This document shows positions 4,201 to 19,993 of a DNA stretch of 20,500 nt, piece after piece. The stretch lies in contig NW_013668828.1 of the NCBI RefSeq assembly GCF_000517525.1, positions 33,672-54,171 on the forward strand, written 5' to 3'. Below the pieces are notes generated by a model. It saw only the letters and a program-made list of their open reading frames with translations, was not told the DNA's origin and searched no databases. Numbering within the stretch: the first letter of the stretch is position 1; the number at the start of each line of letters is the position of its first letter. The stretch comes from Limulus polyphemus (Eukaryota). Position numbers and translations under genes: made by a program.

Positions 4201-6196
4201 TTTTACCTTAAACAGTTTAAGACTTGTAACAGTCAACATCTGTTTATATTTAATTTTATTGTTCTATGGCTCGTTGAATTGTGTCTAACTAGTTAATCCT
4301 GCCATACAAGTTGTAAATCACTTGATGAGCACATAGCTCACATTACATTTTGAACAACGTAATGCATTAGATGTTGATGAATGTCCCTCGTGCAGATTTT
4401 TTAGGATATTATTGTTCAATATCTTACCTAATCTAACCTAAAAATTTTCTAATTTTTACATCTTAGTTACTTTTGTAACAAAATGTGAAGAATATGCACA
4501 AGAAATATAGTAACTATAATTGCCCTTTTTTTGCTGTTGGTTGCAGATGAAATTTAAGCCTACTTTTTTATACTAATTGTACTAGTACACTAAATAATAT
4601 TTATGTACTTAAATAATGCACCTAGGGACACATAATAACATTCACAAAGCAAACGATGTCCTATAACTATCATAATATAAATGGCTTTCTAACTATGCTA
4701 ACTTTTAACTGAAACAACAAAATATAATGTCATTTGATAGATTGGCACTTTATACAATACTATTCATAACCAGTAGAAAAGCAAAGTTTTAGGATTAAAG
4801 GCTATGAAAATTAGACTTTGCCTTAGTAATATCTATGTTATAATGAGCAATTTATGTCAAATGCCATACTTCACAGAATGGTGGTAAATAAATTAAAGAA
4901 AAGAGAAGACCTAGAGGACAAATGTCATGATTCTCATAAAACAAGAGTTTGAAGATTTTTTAAAATATGCCCTAATAAAATTAAGAGCTTAAAACTTAAA
5001 TAATATTAAAATTTGCTTTATTAAAAACATTTTGATACCAATTTTATTAATATTCATTGATAATAAAGTGGTTTAATTAAATTTTGAATGTAACTCTCTA
5101 AAAGATCACAGCATGCACACTCTAACCTTCCTGCAATGAGAGGGTTAATCTGCATAGACAAAAAAAATCTATACAGAGTAATTTAGACCAAACACAAAAA
5201 TGTGTCTTTAAAAACAAGTATCAATATTGTTATTTGAGAAATAATTTAATCGAAGGAAATGTGAAAATACATATATAATGTATGTAAACTTTGAAATGTT
5301 TTCATTTTTAAAATGCTAGAAGAATCCTAAAACAGCAAAAATTATGAGAACACCTTAGTGAGAAAAAATTATGCAAGTTATTTATTTTTTTCTTTTGAAC
5401 AGAGAATGAAGAAAAATAAACTTATAAAAGGAAATAATCCATTAAATGTTTACTTCATGTATAAACCTGAAAAACGGCCATTGTACAAACATATACGTGT
5501 ATGATAGAAAAATGTGATATTTCTACATCTTACATTTGAAAATAAAGTTTTGTTTACACTTCCTTATTTTTGTGTTCTTTTGTTTATTTGAGATACTTCT
5601 GCAAATTGGCACAAGGGCTAACTACACTGCCTGTTTAATTGTGAACTGAGAGATCAGAGAAAAGGCAGTTAGTCAAAAGCACCCATCAACAATTCTGGGT
5701 TACTCTAACTGAAATAGTGAGTTATGAAAATCACTTCTATAATGCACTCACAGTTCAAAAGTATGAAGCACAATTTTTTGGCAACTGGCCAAAACACAAC
5801 TTTAAGAAACATGTTTCTTTAACAATATTGGCTGATCCAATTTCTAGGTAGAAATAAGAAAAAATAAAACAAACCATAATTAAATATACCATCTATTTCA
5901 AAATTGTATGTACAATTTGTTTATGTAGTTAGAAAAATTAACAATATTTTTAGTCATTTGAGATATGTCTACAAGAAATCAAGTTCTTCAATATTTACTT
6001 AAGTTTTAATTTTTTTAATAAATTGATTTTCTTTTAGTCAAATAACATTTGAAAAATGTTTGGAAATTTCTTGTTCTAACTAAAAAATAAAAAAATGACG
6101 TTTTTAATGAAAAGAACTTTTCATATTTTAATTTATTCAGCAAAATCAAATTCACTGCTTTCTCTGCAACTGAAGGTTAGAGTATTAATTGTGAAA

Positions 6197-6450: not shown

Positions 6451-9400
6451 CTGGAGCAAGTAGTTCGTATAAATATTAAATAGATTATAAAGAGTTTTAT
6501 ATTAGAGATATTTTATGGAACCAAAACAAAAAATAGTATGACACAATCCAACATGAATTTTAACAAAGCTAAACATTATGTCTACAACATAAAGTAAAAA
6601 AATAAAATTATTTAAAGCAAATTTATCAACTATAATCTGTAACCTTTAGAAATTCTACACATAAGCAAGCACTGTGAATTCTTCAAAACAAACTTTCTAA
6701 ACCTTATGAAACAAAAAAAAATTTTTTAATGCTTCATCTACCATTTTCAAATAATTTCTAATAAAAATTCAAAAACATTATGCATAAGTATTTACAGCAC
6801 AATATCTGTAAATATTGTCACAAAGAAATGTGGTAACTTCAAATAAATTATTTCATCAACTTGGATTTTGACATTAGACTTCTCGCACACCAGGTGAGTG
6901 CTCTTTCAACTAAGCTAAAGGATTAACCCACTAGTACTTTTTAACAACTCAAGTTACTAAAGAATGTTTGGTAAGCTGCATACAGTACCTGTGTACTTAC
7001 TCTATTACAGATATTTTCTTCATAGTCTAATTAGGTTAGGTTTTCGTTGATTTTTACCTTTTTGTGTATCAAACAGACAGACTTCTCCAGTTTCTTGTCC
7101 AACAGCAACATAAGAAATATCCAAAAAGATCATACAAGTTGGAGTTGAAGATAAAACTGATTGAGGTATGGTGTGTACAACAGCCTTGCTGTAACTGATC
7201 CATACCTGCAATTATAGCAATTTTAAAACATTTAATACAGAAACTCTAGGGGGGGAAACTTCATAATTATGTGATGATAAGCTGATTAGGACAGTAGCAG
7301 TTATTTCTTGTTTTGATACAGATAAAAACTAAAAACTCGGCACTTTAGGAAAGACAATATTAACAAACTATGGGGTGTTATTTTAAAAGACAAATTAACA
7401 ATAAGCACAGCTCTAAAACAACAGCTGTAACATAGTAAAATCTTTACTAAAAATAATGTAAAGTTATATTTCTGAGCATTATATCCAAAACAAAGTTAAT
7501 TTTCACATGATCAGGAGGCAAAAGCTTTCTAAATGTAATATTTCAAAGCATAGCCAAGAAATACATTTAAATCTCTGTGAAAGAATTTGGAAAAAAAGAA
7601 ATTAATTAAGTATTCATTAGAATTGTGATAATAGTATGTAAAGATATCACATATTTCAATACTTTAATGCCAAATACCTTTAAGGTTCTATCTTTACTCC
7701 CTGTGATCATAATGTCCTCCGAAATTGAAAAAGATGCACATGTGACAGGAAGAATATGACCTTCCATTTTACCAATCTGAAAAGTGTCAAAACACTAACA
7801 ATTATTAATGATGACAAGAAACCCACTTGAAGTAAAAATGTATAGCAGAGACGGTTGGTATGGGTATTAAAAACTTTAATTAAAATAAAGTACAAGAACA
7901 ACGTTTCAACCTTCTTAAGTCATCATCATTTGTACTTTATTTAATTAAAGTTTTTAATACCCATACCAACCGTCTCTGCTATACATTAACAATTATTATT
8001 ATTATTTCATTTTTGTTTTCTTAAGAAATTTTGGTCCAAGTCTGCATAATAATCTTACTTACAAAACTTCCACTGTTTTTAGTTTGCAGAGTTAATAATT
8101 TTACTGGGATAAGTTCAAAGCCTTCAAGTAATACCATCATGATAGTGTACATAAAGACAAACAAAAAGAATAAAAAACATATTCTGGAGCTGCCAATTTA
8201 ACATTTTTGACATGAGGCTGACATGCCATTCTGTACATTGGTTACAAACCAACCATGAGAACGTACAGCTAGAGCTGGTGATAAACTGAACAAATACCTC
8301 TTCACCAGATAATAACCTTACAAAAAAACATGGAGATAAAATGCACATAACAATAAACAAAGGCAAAATAATCTTTTATTTTTGGCTTATGGTCATGTTC
8401 TGTTTTTTTTTAAAGTCCAACAAAGTTTCTATGTGTGAGTAATTTAGAAGATGAAGTACTACAATCCCCTTCACTAAACCTGAGTCAAAAACTTAGATGT
8501 TTAATTGTTTAGTAGTATGAATACTATTTATTATATGTAAGTAATGTAGCAGATGAAGTACTACAATCCCCTTCACCAAACCTGAGTCAAAAACTTAGAT
8601 TTTTAATTGTTTAGTAGTATGAATACTATATATTATATGTGAGTAATGTAGCAGATGAAGTACTACAATCCCCTTCACCAAACCTGAGTCAAAAACTAAG
8701 ATTTTTAATTGTTTAGTAGTATGAATACTATTTATTATATGCGAGTAATGTAGCAGATGAAGTACTACAATCCCCTTCACCAAACCTGCTGTAAATACAT
8801 TTATTACTAGTGAAGTGTACTAAGCTACATCTCAAAATGATGTTATTGCCATGAATATTTCTTATCATTGTATCTATTTGTTTGAGAAATGCCAACCTGA
8901 AGTAACTAAACAGGAAATTACACTTTTAATCTAGTGCAAGAATAACCCATGATTTATCTAATAATAATAATAATGAGCTGAATAAAAATAAATAAGTTAT
9001 AAGTTCACTAACCCGAGTACCTTGAGATGCTGACCACAGGAATACTTCCATTCTGGATGATGATGACACAATATGTTGACCACTAGTGCTAAAAGCCACA
9101 AATTGCACAGACCCTTTATGACCATGGAGGATCTAAGAAAATTATATGATACTTTAATAACAGCAATGTCTGACAAGTCCATTGACTTCATACTCATTCA
9201 AGGTGTCCACAAAACTATACTAATTACTATATTCTTTGGTGTCAGTTCCATATGTTTTACCTCTGCTCTGCCTATACAACAAATCACAACTGGTATAAAT
9301 TGGTTCAAACCTGCTTTTACAATAAATACACACAACAACAACAACAAAGATTAACACACATGCTTAAAAACACAATCGGTGAAATTCCTAATAGTTACAA

Positions 9401-14344: not shown

Positions 14345-15780
14345 TGTATAATGTTATGAGATTTAAGCTATTTAGAGTAAACATTTATGGATTCTTGTTA
14401 TAATTTGTAGTCATTCAAGAACAAAAAATGTGTAATTTATATCCATTTCCTAATTTTTTACGTTGGTTATGAGGTCAGTCAAATAGACTAAACTCATACA
14501 GAGATACAATAGTGAAATAACAGATAAAATATAAAGTTCTTTCAAAAACAAAACGTTTGATAATTATCTGGTGGTTATTAGGAGGTTATAACTTGACAAT
14601 TTTCTGATGCATAAAAGTATTTTTAATCTTAAAATCAAAATTATTGTTTTTTGGATAGTCAAAATTCTAAAAATAAAAAAAATGTGCAGGCAACTCATTG
14701 CTTCAAAAATCTTAAAACTTAATAAACAAAATCAGATATATTGTGTACTAAAGCCTTGTATTGTTTACTGATAATCTTTAAAATTTTGTGAAGATACACA
14801 TACTGCATTAAAAGTCATAGTATGAAAACTATAACAAGCACCAAATAGTACGAAATTGGTCCCTGGGACAGAGCATGTAGTGAGAGAGTAAATTTTGAAC
14901 TGAAAAACTAAAGGGATGGCAGCTAGTCAGAATTACCCACTGAAGGATGTCATCTAGTCAGAATCTCCTACTTAGAGAAGGCAGCTAGTTAGTATTACCC
15001 ACTGCCATCTCTTTGGTTAGTCTTATCAAAGTGGAATTTGAAGTTACTTTTATAATGTACTCATGGCCCTAAAGTGCAGAGCATGGTTTTACTGCAACAC
15101 TAGACCACTGCTGGTGCCATTTGAAAAAAAACTAACAAAGGCACTCAAAGTGGTACCAAGGTTTAGCCTATATTCCTGTGAGATATGCAAGTTATTTTCT
15201 TATGCAGAATATTTATGATGACTACTTAGGAAGGAAATTCACAACGACAGTGATACTCATATAGATGAGATTGTAAATTTTTGCTGTATTTTGATGGCTT
15301 AATCTTATTATTAATTGTCATACTGGAACATCTGATTATAGATAGTTTTTTTACCTCCCATGCTAGAATTATTCAGGAGAGCAGTCAGATCAAGGAGTAA
15401 AACACTAAATCAGAAAATAACAGTAAGACCACTGTTATACAATCTCATATTGTCATGTGAACAAATAAATAATACACTTGCGTTTTCCTCTCCAGAACTT
15501 TTCTCACAAATTTCTCGATCAAATGATACAAATCTCATATCATAAGAAAGGCCTTTATCCTACTAGTCTGGATTGCATATTGGCTTTTCCATTTAGAATC
15601 ATCTTACCTGTTTTAACATTACATCCACCTTAAAAGGCTGCACATTTGACACAGATCTCAAAATCATAAAAAAAAAGCACTTACAGAACCAGTTTGGACA
15701 TCTATAAGTCTTATTACACCATCCTGTCCTCCTAAACCAGCAATATCACCCTTCCTTGAAACTGCCAGACACTGTATTGG
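6305..15780 (-). CDS. Gene-level span of a multi-exon WD40-repeat (beta-propeller) protein gene; the 9 exons are listed separately and the 5' end probably lies further upstream
   Basis: Eight exons with canonical AG/GT boundaries join in phase, and their conceptual translation contains at least 7 WD40-type blades (GH...WD-like units). See the individual exon entries. Confidence 0.75.
6848..6935 (-). repeat. Degenerate tRNA-like SINE head fragment
   Basis: The minus strand reads 'gggttaatcctttagcttagttgaaagagcactcacctggtgtgcgagaagtctaatgtcaaaatccaagtt'. It has a D-arm-like 'TAGCTTAGTTGAAAGAGC' and 'ATCCAAGTT' resembling the B-box region of the SINE heads at 18720-18789. Similarity is weak. 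Confidence 0.2.
7058..7205 (-). CDS. WD40 gene coding exon (phase 0 start, 1 nt carried out)
   Basis: Minus acceptor is 'ttgctataattgcag|GTATGG' and donor is 'CAAAAAG|GTAAAAAT'. It encodes [49 protein letters not shown](+G). It joins the upstream exon as ...GSKDRTLK|VWI..., a classic WD blade end. Confidence 0.7.
7678..7776 (-). CDS. WD40 gene coding exon (99 nt, phase 0/0)
   Basis: Minus acceptor is 'cttttcag|ATTGGT' and donor is 'CTTAAAG|GTATTTGG'. It encodes [33 protein letters not shown], a GH...TGSxDxTxK WD repeat. Confidence 0.75.
7837..7987. repeat. Near-perfect ~150-bp palindrome (two ~57-bp arms, ~36-bp loop); MITE/foldback-like hairpin in an intron
   Basis: Left arm 'aatgtatagcagagacggttggtatgggtattaaaaactttaattaaaataaagtaca' is at 7837-7894. 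Right arm 7931-7987 is its reverse complement, with one 1-nt indel (aaaat versus aaat). The loop is 'agaacaacgtttcaaccttcttaagtcatcatcatt'. Confidence 0.8.
8063..8121 (-). CDS. WD40 gene coding exon (59 nt; starts with 2 nt completing Gly codon, ends phase 0)
   Basis: Minus has a long polypyrimidine tract 'ttttttattctttttgtttgtctttatg...cttgaag|GC' and donor 'AGTTTT|GTAAGT'. With the carry-in G from exon 9021-9132 it encodes [20 protein letters not shown]. It is the only stop-free frame, and its phase matches both neighbours. Confidence 0.6.
8431..8787. repeat. Intronic tandem repeat, about 3.5 copies of a 102-104-bp unit
   Basis: Unit 'atgt(g/a)(a)agtaatgtagcagatgaagtactacaatccccttcac(c/t)aaacctgagtcaaaaacttagat(t/g)tttaattgtttagtagtatgaatactat(t/a)tattat' starts at 8431, 8535, 8637 and 8739. 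The minus ORF 8595..8783 is a read-through of this array. Confidence 0.85.
9021..9132 (-). CDS. WD40 gene coding exon (112 nt, phase 0 start, 1 nt carried out)
   Basis: Minus acceptor is 'tttcttag|ATCCTC' (AG from plus 9133-9134) and donor is 'CTCAAG|GTACTC'. It encodes [37 protein letters not shown](+G), a textbook WD blade (GH..V..VAFS..G..IVS.S.D..V.LW). An in-frame TAG lies immediately upstream of the acceptor. Confidence 0.8.
9486..9594 (-). CDS. WD40 gene coding exon (109 nt; 1 nt completes Lys codon, ends phase 0)
   Basis: Minus acceptor is 'tttatgttttag|GAAACC' and donor is 'AAAGCA|GTGAGT', a consensus donor. It encodes (K)[36 protein letters not shown]. Confidence 0.85.
10767..10916 (-). 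CDS. WD40 gene coding exon (150 nt; phase 2-type start, 2 nt carried out)
   Basis: Minus acceptor is 'tatcttttttttttggttgttactacag|AATTGG' and donor is 'CAGAACAA|GTAAGG'. It encodes (R)[49 protein letters not shown](+AA). The upstream exon's AG plus A gives Arg. The carried AA plus G of the next exon gives Lys. Plus-strand ORF 10679..10906 is its antisense shadow. Confidence 0.85.
11220..11478 (-). mobile_element. tRNA-derived SINE copy (intronic, same orientation as the host gene)
   Basis: Minus-strand head is 'cctgggattagtatggccttgtggttagtatgccaagctgtggtttggaaggttcaaagcctgagtc', with an A-box-like TGGTTAGTA and a B-box-like GGTTCAAAGCC. The body 'gcctctgtaaatgctctgcactttc...ctgactagcag' is homologous to 14900-15118 and to the other SINE copies. 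Confidence 0.55.
12743..12867 (-). CDS. WD40 gene coding exon (125 nt, phase 0 start, 2 nt carried out)
   Basis: Minus acceptor is 'cttaatatcttcaatatctttgttacag|ATAAAACG', with an in-frame TAG just upstream, and donor is 'GGATATAG|GTAAGA'. It encodes [41 protein letters not shown](+AG). The junction with exon 15685-15780 reads ...LIDVQTGS|IKRTLTGH..., a canonical WD blade boundary. Plus-strand ORF 12654..12923 is its antisense shadow. Confidence 0.85.
13596..13775 (+). promoter_or_regulatory. CpG-containing promoter-like module plus a putative first exon of a plus-strand transcript (ATG-G followed by GTAAGT), nested in the 2.8-kb intron of the WD40 gene
   Basis: Read directly: GC/Sp1-like box 'gtgggccccgcccacc' at 13602-13617; CRE-like 'tgacgtgt' at 13659-13666; TATA-like 'taaataacc' at 13666-13674; ATG at 13770-13772 in 'ggaaggaATGGgtaagtg', with a consensus GTAAGT donor directly after ATG-G. 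CpG is clustered locally in otherwise CpG-poor DNA. The minus strand has no ATG-containing ORF here, only a GTAAGC donor at about 13635-13640. Confidence 0.35.
14314..14342. repeat. (TA)14 microsatellite
   Basis: atatatatatatatatatatatatatata, read directly. Confidence 0.9.
14826..15120 (-). mobile_element. tRNA-derived SINE copy (intronic, sense to host gene) with an internal ~25-bp motif present 3 times
   Basis: Homologous to the 17846-18064, 18512-18789 and 11220-11478 copies ('ggcagctagt.a...cccactgcca.ctcttgg...' and '...aaagtgcagagcat...'). The motif 'ggcagctagtcagaattacccactg' occurs 2.5 times (14910-14934, 14972-14996, and partially 14940-14960). Confidence 0.55.
15685..15780 (-). 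CDS. WD40 gene coding exon (96 nt, phase 0/0); most upstream exon identified
   Basis: Minus acceptor is 'ctctctttctgtag|CCAATACAG' and donor is 'GGTTCT|GTAAGTGC', a consensus donor. It encodes [32 protein letters not shown]. Confidence 0.8.
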
Positions 15781-15888
15781 CTACAGAAAGAGAGACAGAA
15801 TAACTGAAGTACAAATACTAATTAGTCTTAATATGAGAAATAAGAACCAACTACATAGATGTAAAAACATTATAACTGACCAAATAAA

Positions 15889-16300
15889 GACAGGAGTTTT
15901 ATAGAATATCTTTGGGTTTTAATGATTAAGGTTTTGTTTTTTAAAAGATTTTATTCAATGTTAAAACCATAACAGGAGTTTTATAGAATATCTTTGGGTT
16001 TTAATGATCAAGGTTTTGTTTTTAAAAGATTTTATTCAATGTTAAAACCATAACAGGAGTTTTATAGAAGATCATTGGGTTTTAATGATCAAGGTTTTGT
16101 TTTTTAAAAGATTTTATTCAATGTTAAAACCATAACAGGAGTTTTATAGAATATCATTAACATTGAATAAAATCTTTTAAAAAACAAAACCTTGATCATT
16201 AAAACCCAAAGATATTCTATAAAACTCCTGTTATGGTTTTAACATTGAATAAAATCTTTTAAAAAACAAAACCTTGATCATTAAAACCCAAAAACCAAAA
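15889..16300. repeat. Composite palindromic array: about 3.1 direct copies of an ~88-bp unit (15889-16158) followed by about 1.6 inverted copies (16159-16300)
   Basis: Direct units 'acaggagttttatagaatatc(t/a)ttgggttttaatgat(t/c)aaggttttgtttt(t)taaaagattttattcaatgttaaaaccata' start at 15890, 15972 and 16063. From 16159, 'aacattgaataaaatcttttaaaaaacaaaaccttgatcattaaaacccaaagatattctataaaactcctgttatggttttaacattg...' is the reverse complement. The predicted foldback has a stem of up to about 140 bp and a loop of about 30 nt. Confidence 0.85.
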
Positions 16301-17845
16301 GTTGTATGTAACTAAGAAAATAACAAAAATCCAGGACCATAATGCTGGATTAGACTAAAGATTTTTTTACCATGTTAATGTTTTTATACAAACAAAGAAA
16401 GCTTTAGTACTGGGTTAGAAAATAGATGATGAATGTTACAAAAAATAAAGACTGCCAAAAGAGTATTGCTTTATATTTGAAAAACTTTCAGAAAAACTGT
16501 TAAAAATGAAGGAAAAAAAATCAAGTTTACCATAACTTTAACATCGCTTCATACTACAATGTATGTATAGTACAAGGTACTTGTATAGCTTCAAGTCTGT
16601 TTTACTGGGTCAAATACATTATTATACAATTCCAAAAGGAATATCAATGAACCTATGTGTATTTCACCGAGTTAATTTGTTAATAATATAATGATTACTT
16701 TTATAATTACAGGGTTACTTACAAAAACAAAGACTATATGTTTCTGAATTATTAATTAAAAATAGTTATTACACATATTTTACTTATTTAAATTTTACTA
16801 ACCAATAACCTCCTTTGGAGTTATTATTTCAGTGTTTCTATATGTTTTTCAGATAAAAGCTCTATACACATTCTACATAAACAGAGAACAGTTATACAAG
16901 TACAAGCCTATATTTTAATTTATAATAGCTTGTACATGAAGATGAATAGGTGCTAATAAGGCCTCTTGGTTGCTCACCTTTAATCATGGAAAAATTGTTC
17001 TACAACTTCATAAGTTATATTTCTTCCCATAAAATATGACCGTATGAGGAAAAGCCATAAAAACAACCTTTCCATCAGCATCTTAAGACATTAATGGCAA
17101 GACATAAAGATAAGCTTATATGTGCAGCTGTAGGAACTACTTACCTCTCTGAATTCAGATAATGTCAACCTAAGGGGTTCAGGGAACTGAGGCCTTGTTA
17201 ACCAGTGGATGGCCCAAGCCGATGTATTTTGTACTGCATCAGTATACACGCACGAAGAGTCTGGTTCATTAAGGGCCTGTTGTCGTACCAAACTGGGGTA
17301 CCTTTGAACACCCAAAACAAATATATATCTTAATTTATATACCAAAGTTCTTGTCAGTGTATCATTTTAATATTTAATAGATACTTTATGTGAAAATTCC
17401 AAATTTACTAACTATTGTTGTGAAGTTATAATTTATAAATAATAAAACATTCAGATGTTAAAGTTTTTCCACCATTTTATAGCTGTTTTACTTTTCATTT
17501 GTGATTAAATGTATAATATTACTGTAAGAATTTCAAAGAATATCATTTCATGCTTGTTTTTTACAGCACATAAGTTTACTGTTTGATGTTTCTAACGTAA
17601 AACTCTTCTTGTAGGCGCTATTGTGAAATTATATACGTAATAACATCTTTGCAATAGGCATTTCTGCTTTCGTTATAAGCAGTCTGGTACATACAGAAAA
17701 CTCACTATGTATGTGGTATATGCAGGCACACTATGTGTTTCTTACATATTATATAGGTAGTGCTTGCATCCTTAGAATAGTAGTATTATTGTTTAATGTA
17801 CAAAATGATGTATTTACTTAATCAGAAACAGCTTTGGTTTTAGAT

Positions 17846-18064
17846 TTTTTCTGCAAAGTTTGCTTGAGGGTTATCTCCACTTCTCATCCATAATTTAGAA
17901 ATGACAGACTAGAGGAACGGCAGCTAGTCAACACTATCCACCATCTCTTAGGCTATTTTAATCGAATACTGGCATAGAATGTCAAATTATAACATCCCCC
18001 ACGGCTGATAGGACGAGAATGTTTGGTGATGGGATTTGAACCCGTTACCCGTAAAGGTGTCACA
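17846..18064 (-). mobile_element. tRNA-derived SINE copy (sense to host gene)
   Basis: Minus-strand head is 'gtgacacctttacgggtaacgggttcaaatcccatcaccaaacattctcgtcctatcagccgtggggg...', with B box GGTTCAAATCC. The body 'ggcagctagtcaacactatccaccatctcttaggc' and the tail are homologous to 18512-18789. Confidence 0.6.
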
Positions 18065-18511: not shown

Positions 18512-18789
18512 TTGGTTTGTTCGTTTTGAATTTCGTGCAAAGCTACATAAGGGCTATCTGTGCTAGCCATCCCTAATTTAGCAATGTAAGACTAGAGGGA
18601 AGGCAGCTAGTCATCACCACCCACTGCCAACTCTTGGGCTACTCTTTTACCAACGAATAGTGAGATTAACCATCACATTATAATGCCCCCATGGTGGAAA
18701 GAACAAGCATGTTTGATGGGACGGGGATTCGAACTTGCAACCCTCAGATTGCGAGTCGAGCACTCTAACCACCTGGCTAGGCTGGGCCC
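18512..18789 (-). mobile_element. tRNA-derived SINE copy, most complete (tRNA-like head, conserved body, 'gtagctttgcacgaaattcaaaacgaacaaacc' tail)
   Basis: Minus-strand head is 'GGGCCCAGCCTAGCCAGGTGGTTAGAGTGCTCGACTCGCAATCTGAGGGTTGCAAGTTCGAATCCCCGTCCCATC'. It has an A-box-like TAGCCAGGTGG and a B-box-like AGTTCGAATCC. It is followed by a tRNA-unrelated body shared with the three other copies. Confidence 0.7.
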
Positions 18790-19046
18790 TAAGATCACTG
18801 TCTGAGTATAAGACATATCAAAACACCATACATATAATGCTTCTCGCTAACAAAACAAAAAGCAACACAAACATGGTAAGTAACACTGAAATGGAATAAT
18901 ACATTTTCAGGTATGATGTGCCATATTTACAATTTTTCTTAAACAGTAGCACAAAAACATCATTTACATTCTATTTAAAATTAATGTGCAATGGTATTAG
19001 AACTGCGAGCATAAACATAGAAATGATTTTGATGTTGGAGATGCAT

Positions 19047-19617
19047 ACTGTAAATATTATATCCTCAATGACTGAGGAGTGTGATAACACCTCTTATACC
19101 ACACTGTAAATATTATATCCTCAATGACTGAGGAGTGTGATACACACCTCTTATACCACACTGTAAATATTATATCCTCAATGACTGAGGAGTGTGAAAA
19201 TACCTCTTATACCACATTGTAAATATTATATCCTCAATGACTTAGGAGTGTGATAACACCTCTTATACACCCCCTTAAATATTATATCCTCAATGACTGA
19301 GGAGTGTGATAACACCTCTTATACCACACTGTAAATCAGTCATTGAGGATATAATATCTACAGTGTATCTGTTTCAATCATTATTTTTGAAGTGTACAAG
19401 TATGTTTTGTGTATATCACTCTACTGATATTTAATTGTCCATTTACATTTGAGTACTACTATCTATGATTTTGTCATTGTGAAATGCAATAATAAATTGT
19501 TTCTTGACCATGAAGCAGAGAGGTGAGAAGTGTGGTATAAGAGGTGTTTTCACACTCCTCATTTATTGAGGATATAATATTTACAGTGTGGTATAAGAGG
19601 TGTTATCACACTCCGTA
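19047..19617. repeat. Tandem array of 5 copies of a ~57-bp unit (19047-19335), followed by a short inverted partial copy (19336-19365) and, after a ~160-bp spacer, 2 inverted copies (19526-19617)
   Basis: Unit 'actgtaaatattatatcctcaatgactgaggagtgtgataacacctcttataccac' starts at 19047, 19103, 19160, 19218 and 19273. 'cagtcattgaggatataatat' and 'gtggtataagaggtgtt(t/a)tcacactcctca(t/g)t(t/c)attgaggatataatatttacagt' are its reverse complement. Plus-strand ORF 18918..19109 is a read-through of this array. Confidence 0.85.
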
Positions 19618-19649: not shown

Positions 19650-19993
19650 TTAGTAGGAAGTTATGCTCAAAACTACTAACCTCAACAAAATGTGAAGGTT
19701 TCGAGATATAAACTGGTAGTAAGCTGAAACTTTTTTGTTCAAATTCTCATCTTTGTTAAATGTTTTTACTGTTGATATCCCAGTGATAAGCAAAGAGTTG
19801 AAATTGTCCAGCAAGCATGATCCTTGACCAAGTCGAAAATAAGCCTCAATAAAGCTGAGGTCACAGAAGATTTCTGATAGATATTTAGTGCAAGATGCCC
19901 TGCATAAATGGTATGGAAGGGCCTGAAAAGCTTCTGGCCATTTACCTGTCCAGGTTTTAGAGCCTTGAGGGTCAGCCTTATGTAACATTAGAG
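19650..19993 (-). CDS. Coding exon of an uncharacterised protein, probably a 3'-terminal exon; may belong to a separate upstream gene or to the 5' part of the WD40 gene
   Basis: A 124-codon open frame in about 30% GC DNA, with locally raised GC. The minus strand has a strong acceptor 'tatattttattttag|CTCTAATG' (AG from plus 19994-19995). The in-frame stop is at 19650-19652, with AATAATAAAA on the minus strand about 10-25 nt downstream. An internal consensus donor 'ACAG|GTAAAT' and 'TTGAG|GTTAGT' are alternative exon ends. The product reads ...LMLHKADPQGSKTWTGKWPEAFQALPYHLCRASCTKYLSEIFCDLSFIEAYFRLGQGSCLLDNFNSLLITGISTVKTFNKDENLNKKVSAYYQFISRNLHILLRLVVLSITSY*. I do not recognise any family. Confidence 0.4.

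Follow-up and report, generated by a model that had tools for sequence, protein, structure and literature searches.

The repeat locus at 15890–16299 reads in direct orientation, then inverted, then direct again, and it encodes a very long hairpin. The best explanation of this arrangement, and in our judgement the probable one, is a young rearrangement, either an in-place inversion or a template switch, inside a minisatellite of an intron. Here, a minisatellite is defined as a tandem repeat with a 10–100-bp unit, and the window is the whole 20.5-kb stretch of DNA that was analysed.

Anatomy of the 82-bp tandem array and its inverted block

The array consists of one 82-bp unit in head-to-tail copies. 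Tandem Repeats Finder delimited a direct array at 15890–16155 with a period of 82, 3.3 copies, and 96% matches. The original prediction had described this array as 3.1 direct copies of an 88-bp unit, and both values had to be corrected accordingly. A BLASTN search of the window with a dimer of the unit identified 16157–16292 as the reverse complement of 136 nt, or 1.66 units, at 98.5% identity, where the original prediction had described ~1.6 reverse-complement copies after the direct array. The minisatellite arms are noncoding and have an A+T content of 77%.

The first copy in direct orientation on the plus strand, c1 (15890–15971), carries a single private change, in which T replaces C at unit position 38. 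The second copy on this strand, c2 (15972–16052), is 81 nt long, with a T-run shorter by one T, and the third, c3 (16053–16134), has the private changes T18G and T22A. The fourth copy, c4, starts at 16135 and proceeds in the same direction through unit positions 1–21 to 16155, where it ends at the left inversion breakpoint. An extra A at 16156, placed by the sequence and by the restored alignment (see below), marks the left junction. The 136-nt inverted block on the minus strand (16157–16292) is the reverse complement of c4 positions 22–82 plus positions 1–75 of a fifth copy, c5, and it is identical to the consensus unit. After this block, 7 nt of direct unit sequence follow on the plus strand (16293–16299). 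These 7 nt, AACCAAA, match unit positions 76–82 (AACCATA) at six of seven bases and would represent the right end of an original 5.0-copy array. They had been overlooked in the original prediction; with them, the locus has two orientation switches and not one.

When 16157–16292 was flipped back in silico and the restored array was scored against the consensus unit repeated five times, a direct array of 5.0 units was obtained, with 405 matches, 4 mismatches, and 2 one-base gaps. This restored array then runs into unrelated flank. The in-register resumption of the direct orientation is unlikely to be accidental because 7-mers within one mismatch of AACCATA occur in the window at a frequency of only ~0.003. 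A local fragment is thus reverse-complemented where it stands, and behind it the original strand continues in register. The clean restored array together with the in-register return is what an in-place inversion of 136 bp would leave behind. From this one sequence we infer such an inversion, in which the return to the direct orientation depends on 7 nt only.

Both junctions are clean. Foreign sequence is absent from them, and there is one extra base overall. Each junction has 2 nt of microhomology, TT at 16157–16158 on the left and AA at 16291–16292 on the right, and these dinucleotides fit both orientations. Position 16156 can also be parsed in another way, with c4 carrying the T22A variant of c3 and the extra A lying in the A-run at the right junction. 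This breakpoint anatomy is directly visible, and the mechanism behind it would be either template switching or end joining. The outer ends of the array are not mutually inverted: the left end corresponds to unit position 1 and the right end to positions 76–82, both in direct orientation. The left flank reads ...AATAAAG up to the array, and the right flank opens with AGTTGTATG; these two have AG alone in common, and no target-site duplication is present. Direct repeats of the ACCAAA type at the array ends were considered as a signature of target-site duplication or slippage, and were rejected as a low-complexity coincidence with a mismatch at the expected hybrid junction.

The 82-bp unit was not found elsewhere in the 20.5-kb window, where the best other BLASTN match had an E-value of 0.003 over 33 nt. 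In line with the original prediction, the unit is not derived from the other repeats of the window. Three 20–24-nt anchors of the unit gave 0 exact matches in metagenome, viral, and prokaryotic contigs, which are collections without the host genome, and six 17–22-mers of the unit (both strands) had no match in the full-text literature. Degenerate copies of the unit were not detected in the flanks (15590–15889 and 16293–16600), whose alignment to a unit trimer was no better than that of shuffled sequences. The idea that the array was born in place out of local sequence was dropped on the basis of these shuffled-level flank alignments.

The number of private changes per copy is 0–2, with one or two in each of c1, c2, and c3. 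Because the array copies differ so little, the structure appears to be young, yet so few differences cannot date the inversion. In the proposed course of events, the starting state would have been five head-to-tail copies of the AT-rich 82-bp unit in the intron, at 15890–16299. One structural mutation may then have reversed the internal 136-bp segment from c4 position 22 to c5 position 75. This could have been a two-break inversion, or the replicating strand could have switched to the complementary template and then returned; inside near-identical tandem units, an inversion and an in-register template switch lead to the same sequence outcome. Since the units are nearly identical, the flipped block would have been complementary to the adjacent copies, and a near-perfect inverted repeat of 133–134 bp with a 29-nt spacer would have arisen in one event.

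Template-switch events in the literature are mostly tens of bases long and give stems of miRNA size. The four-point template-switch model includes the in-place inversion of a fragment (PMC5453318), and template-switch events, which are enriched in introns, generate a whole hairpin in a single step (PMC10710096; bioRxiv 10.1101/2021.04.15.439925). The locus described here resembles template-switch hairpins (Loytynoja and Goldman 2017, PMC5453318; Monttinen et al. 2023, PMC10710096) in its reverse-complemented fragment with in-register return, in a complete paired stem attributable to one event, in its intronic position, and in the short microhomology at both junctions. It differs from these cases in that 136 nt would have been inverted in the context of a tandem array, which gives a ~133-bp stem.

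Abrupt direct-to-inverted switches also occur inside the satellite arrays of Tribolium freemani TfSat01 (bioRxiv 10.1101/2024.12.02.626372). As in our locus, a truncated monomer of TfSat01 directly meets a reverse monomer that is truncated elsewhere, with nothing between them and a short potential loop. In contrast to our locus, an intronic array of 410 bp that switches orientation twice, TfSat01 is kilobase-scale, very abundant, and centromeric, and its switch points are conserved across chromosomes. Given this precedent for orientation switches in Tribolium freemani, the architecture itself is not new.

The hairpin and its host intron

Two ungapped pairs of inverted arms were detected in the locus. 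The first pair, 15911–16027 and 16176–16292, spans 117 nt at 98%, and the second, 16014–16127 and 16157–16270, spans 114 nt at 96% with 29 nt between the arms. When one gap was allowed, the nearest register paired a left arm at 15993–16127 with 16157–16292 in 133 bp, with 2 mismatches and 1 bulge, and this arm pairing leaves a 29-nt terminal loop at 16128–16156. The register one unit further out (left arm 15911–16045) has 134 pairs, 1 mismatch, and 1 bulge. An inverted repeat of ~133 bp with a 29-nt spacer is present in the DNA, and either transcript would fold very stably into an A/U-rich hairpin. The near-perfect stem foreseen for a transcript of either strand was thus borne out, with 1–2 mismatches and 1 bulge. 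The loop of ~30 nt also proved correct (29 nt), whereas the stem is somewhat shorter than the ~140 bp originally given (~135 bp, with 133–134 pairs).

The RNA of 15880–16310 was folded, as had been suggested together with the original prediction. The folding energy was −213.4 kcal/mol for the plus strand (z = −24.5) and −206.1 kcal/mol for the minus strand (z = −34.1). None of the shuffled versions of 15880–16310 reached the native folding energy on either strand. With DNA parameters, the near-register hairpin had an energy of −138.7 kcal/mol (z = −30). A single 82-bp unit alone did not fold significantly on either strand (z = −1.1 and +0.2); the hairpin therefore owes its existence solely to the orientation switch. 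A duplex of such length could serve as a substrate for ADAR editing, and at the DNA level a long inverted repeat could be a site of replication instability.

With ~133 bp, the hairpin far exceeds the stem length of canonical miRNAs, as the original prediction had held. No match at gathering score was obtained with Rfam for the hairpin region. The sub-threshold matches to MIR837, MIR2606, and mir-1422 reached 30.7–52.8 bits, compared to gathering scores of 60–139.7, and the best of them, MIR837, had the same score on both strands (52.8 versus a gathering score of 117). These sub-threshold matches to plant miRNA models reflect the hairpin shape only. A miRNA precursor, for which a stem of ~30–35 bp and a family match at gathering score were expected, was rejected in view of the ~133-bp stem and the lack of an Rfam match.

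The window is eukaryotic, has a G+C content of ~30%, and contains a multi-exon gene on the minus strand. A 96-nt WD40 exon of this gene lies at 15780–15685, with the acceptor AG at 15782–15781 and the donor GT at 15684–15683. Both splice sites are strong (acceptor ctttctgtag/CC, donor TCT/GTAAGT). The concatenated minus-strand exons that include this exon matched Pfam WD40 with an E-value of 1e-43, and the WD40 exons reach down to ~2140. The nearest recognizable upstream exon, approximately at 19993–19681 on the minus strand, matched the APAF-1 helical domain PF17908 at an E-value of 7.6e-5, marginally above the cut-off. The combination of a helical-domain exon with WD40 exons indicates an APAF-1-like product, and the host gene thus appears to be an APAF-1-like gene that encodes the helical domain followed by many WD40 repeats. 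When 290 aa of concatenated WD40 exons were compared with 5.8 billion proteins, only generic WD40 matches with ~30% identity were obtained. The APAF1_C-like exon had no match in the same collection, from which the host lineage is apparently missing. Ten ORFs of the window were also looked up as exact sequences, and none had an entry.

The intron with the hairpin would extend from 19680 to 15781, and would be at most ~3.9 kb long, provided that it contains no intervening exon. This assignment is based on the splice consensus, the reading frame, and the Pfam matches of the flanking exons. The originally proposed intronic placement is supported by the splice consensus and by the APAF1_C and WD40 matches, and the splice-site position confirmed the distance of 110 nt from the upstream array to the acceptor of exon 15780–15685. 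When the sense pre-mRNA from 16420 to 15660 was folded, the long stem included neither the polypyrimidine tract nor the acceptor; in the MFE structure, the stem ends ~130 nt upstream of the latter.

The hairpin would be transcribed only within the intron of its host gene. Most likely, it is a neutral by-product that is degraded along with the intron and has no dedicated function, with neutrality taken as an assumption. Any Dicer processing or ADAR editing of the hairpin would then be incidental. Because a single in-place inversion accounts for the architecture, a function need not be invoked.

Alternative origins and possible functions

One alternative, which we regard as unlikely, is that the locus is one copy of a dispersed foldback-type transposon, MITE, or satellite with tandem-subrepeat arms, in which case the composite would have arrived ready-made by transposition or satellite spread. 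In foldback elements such as Tetris and Galileo, the arms are inverted, differ in length, and contain tandem repeats (PMC4079207, PMC3573991), and the locus shares with FB, Galileo, and Tetris the direct subrepeats that face inverted copies in unequal numbers per side. Furthermore, the same gene contains other inverted structures (the 19044–19614 array, the 179–304/600–725 pair, and the 7837–7987 repeat), which suggests that the genome is rich in such structures. However, unlike FB, Galileo, and Tetris, the locus has no inverted termini, as unit position 1 on the left and positions 76–82 on the right are both direct. It also lacks the 8–10-bp target-site duplication of foldback elements, with AG alone common to the flanks, and it has neither a middle domain nor a distinct terminal domain. 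A second copy is absent from the 20.5-kb window, and there was no exact match in the metagenome, viral, and prokaryotic collections or in the literature, none of which holds the host genome. Four minus-strand open segments elsewhere in the window, considered as transposase remnants, had no Pfam match. A non-exhaustive look at the window gave no evidence of the Tc1 element that was named in the original prediction.

Another alternative concerns function and is compatible with the inversion origin. The hairpin could be a productive source of hpRNA-derived endo-siRNAs, where Dicer would cut the intronic dsRNA to 21–22-nt siRNAs that silence transcripts or influence splicing of the host gene; we consider this distinctly unlikely. 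In its favor, both strands can form the near-perfect stem of 133–134 bp, one of them being the sense strand of the host gene (energies of about −193 to −206 kcal/mol), and the hairpin lies inside a transcribed unit if the host gene is expressed. It has also been reported that hpRNAs can arise in existing transcription units and are evolutionarily young (PMC10317233). Their defining features are Dicer-2-dependent siRNAs, a primary transcript with upregulation in dcr-2 mutants, and arms with homology to target genes or transposons (PMC10317233). The arms of documented hpRNAs copy target genes or transposons (PMC10317233), whereas the arms of our hairpin are a 77% A+T noncoding minisatellite that resembles nothing else in the 20.5-kb window, and BLASTN detected no target homology of these arms within it. 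In addition, nuclear turnover competes with dicing at an intronic location, and the Rfam matches are of a generic long-hairpin type, equal on both strands and far below gathering (52.8 versus 117). Of the proposed hpRNA-like locus, the structural prerequisite, a long near-perfect stem, was therefore found, but target-homologous arms were not found within the window. The locus resembles the Drosophila hpRNA loci (PMC10317233) in its long near-perfect inverted repeat, its position in a transcribed region, its young age, and a size that exceeds canonical miRNAs. It differs from them in its arms, which are minisatellite units without a detected target.

There is a slight chance that the locus represents the one-step birth of a newborn hpRNA in an intron of an APAF-1-like WD40 gene, with arms that derive from a tandem repeat and not from a target. 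If this is true, the repeat-rich introns of the genome may recurrently generate dsRNA sources, a second array being probably located in the same intron. Misassembly is a common problem with tandem repeats and palindromes, and both long-read and amplified libraries contain fold-back chimeras. However, an artefact of assembly or sequencing, such as a chimeric fold-back read collapsed into the consensus, is very improbable, because the direct orientation returns after 136 nt and the sequence then enters unique flank, unlike in a fold-back chimera; the copies also carry distinct private variants, as expected for real sequence.

Other repeats of the gene and significance of the locus

A second array with inverted units is found a short way downstream of the APAF1_C-like exon's donor and probably shares an intron with the hairpin. 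It starts with 5.2 direct copies of a 56-bp unit (19044–19336), which are directly abutted by a 30-nt inverted partial unit (19337–19366). After ~160 nt of unique sequence, ~1.5 inverted 56-bp units follow at 19529–19614, and the arms are up to 86 nt long with 91%. A simple in-place flip was rejected for this array, as flipping 19337–19614 by hand left a 20-nt register gap. The array at 19044–19614, for which a simple flip gives no explanation, may point to a process that recurs in the genome or to a transposon family.

A perfect 48-nt inverted repeat with a 55-nt spacer (7837–7884 and 7940–7987) is located just upstream, in transcript order, of a WD40-coding stretch that starts by ~7776. The open segment around it begins at 7794. 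A clear target-site duplication was not apparent at this repeat, which is a MITE-like element of very young age or else a further template-switch hairpin. The 126-nt inverted repeat pair at 179–304 and 600–725, with 83% complementarity and 295 nt between the arms, looks like an older MITE or foldback-like element.

A dispersed family of short repeats with the core GGCAGCTAGTCA was observed at 5637–5688, 14891–15024, 17867–17943, and 18550–18646, with 69–80% identity. This family is probably SINE-like, and at 14914–15004 it forms a 31-bp tandem triplet. The segment at 18650–18850 resembles the head of a tRNA-derived SINE. ARAGORN called a tRNA-Cys-like sequence with an unusual ACA anticodon at 1816–1887 on the minus strand, where Rfam gave no tRNA at gathering score; this is probably a SINE head or an intronic tRNA pseudogene. 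Further intronic minisatellites were present at 1066–1231 (82-bp unit, 2 copies, 95%) and 8430–8788 (102-bp unit, 3.5 copies, 95%), and both are unrelated in sequence to the 82-bp unit of the hairpin locus. The introns of the host gene are unusually rich in young minisatellites.

Because other inverted-repeat structures occur in the same gene, the hairpin locus is not one of a kind and is less surprising. These structures may stem from a process that recurs, or from repeat families. The hairpin locus would be a further instance of a known phenomenon, in which the new point is the putative inversion origin with its second breakpoint. It is best read as a structural curiosity that arose by a young structural mutation of an ordinary kind. 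A single small rearrangement within a tandem repeat can create a hairpin of >130 bp in a transcribed region, and such hairpins are the supposed raw material for hairpin small-RNA genes. The locus would matter more if small RNAs map to the hairpin or if the process proves common in the genome.
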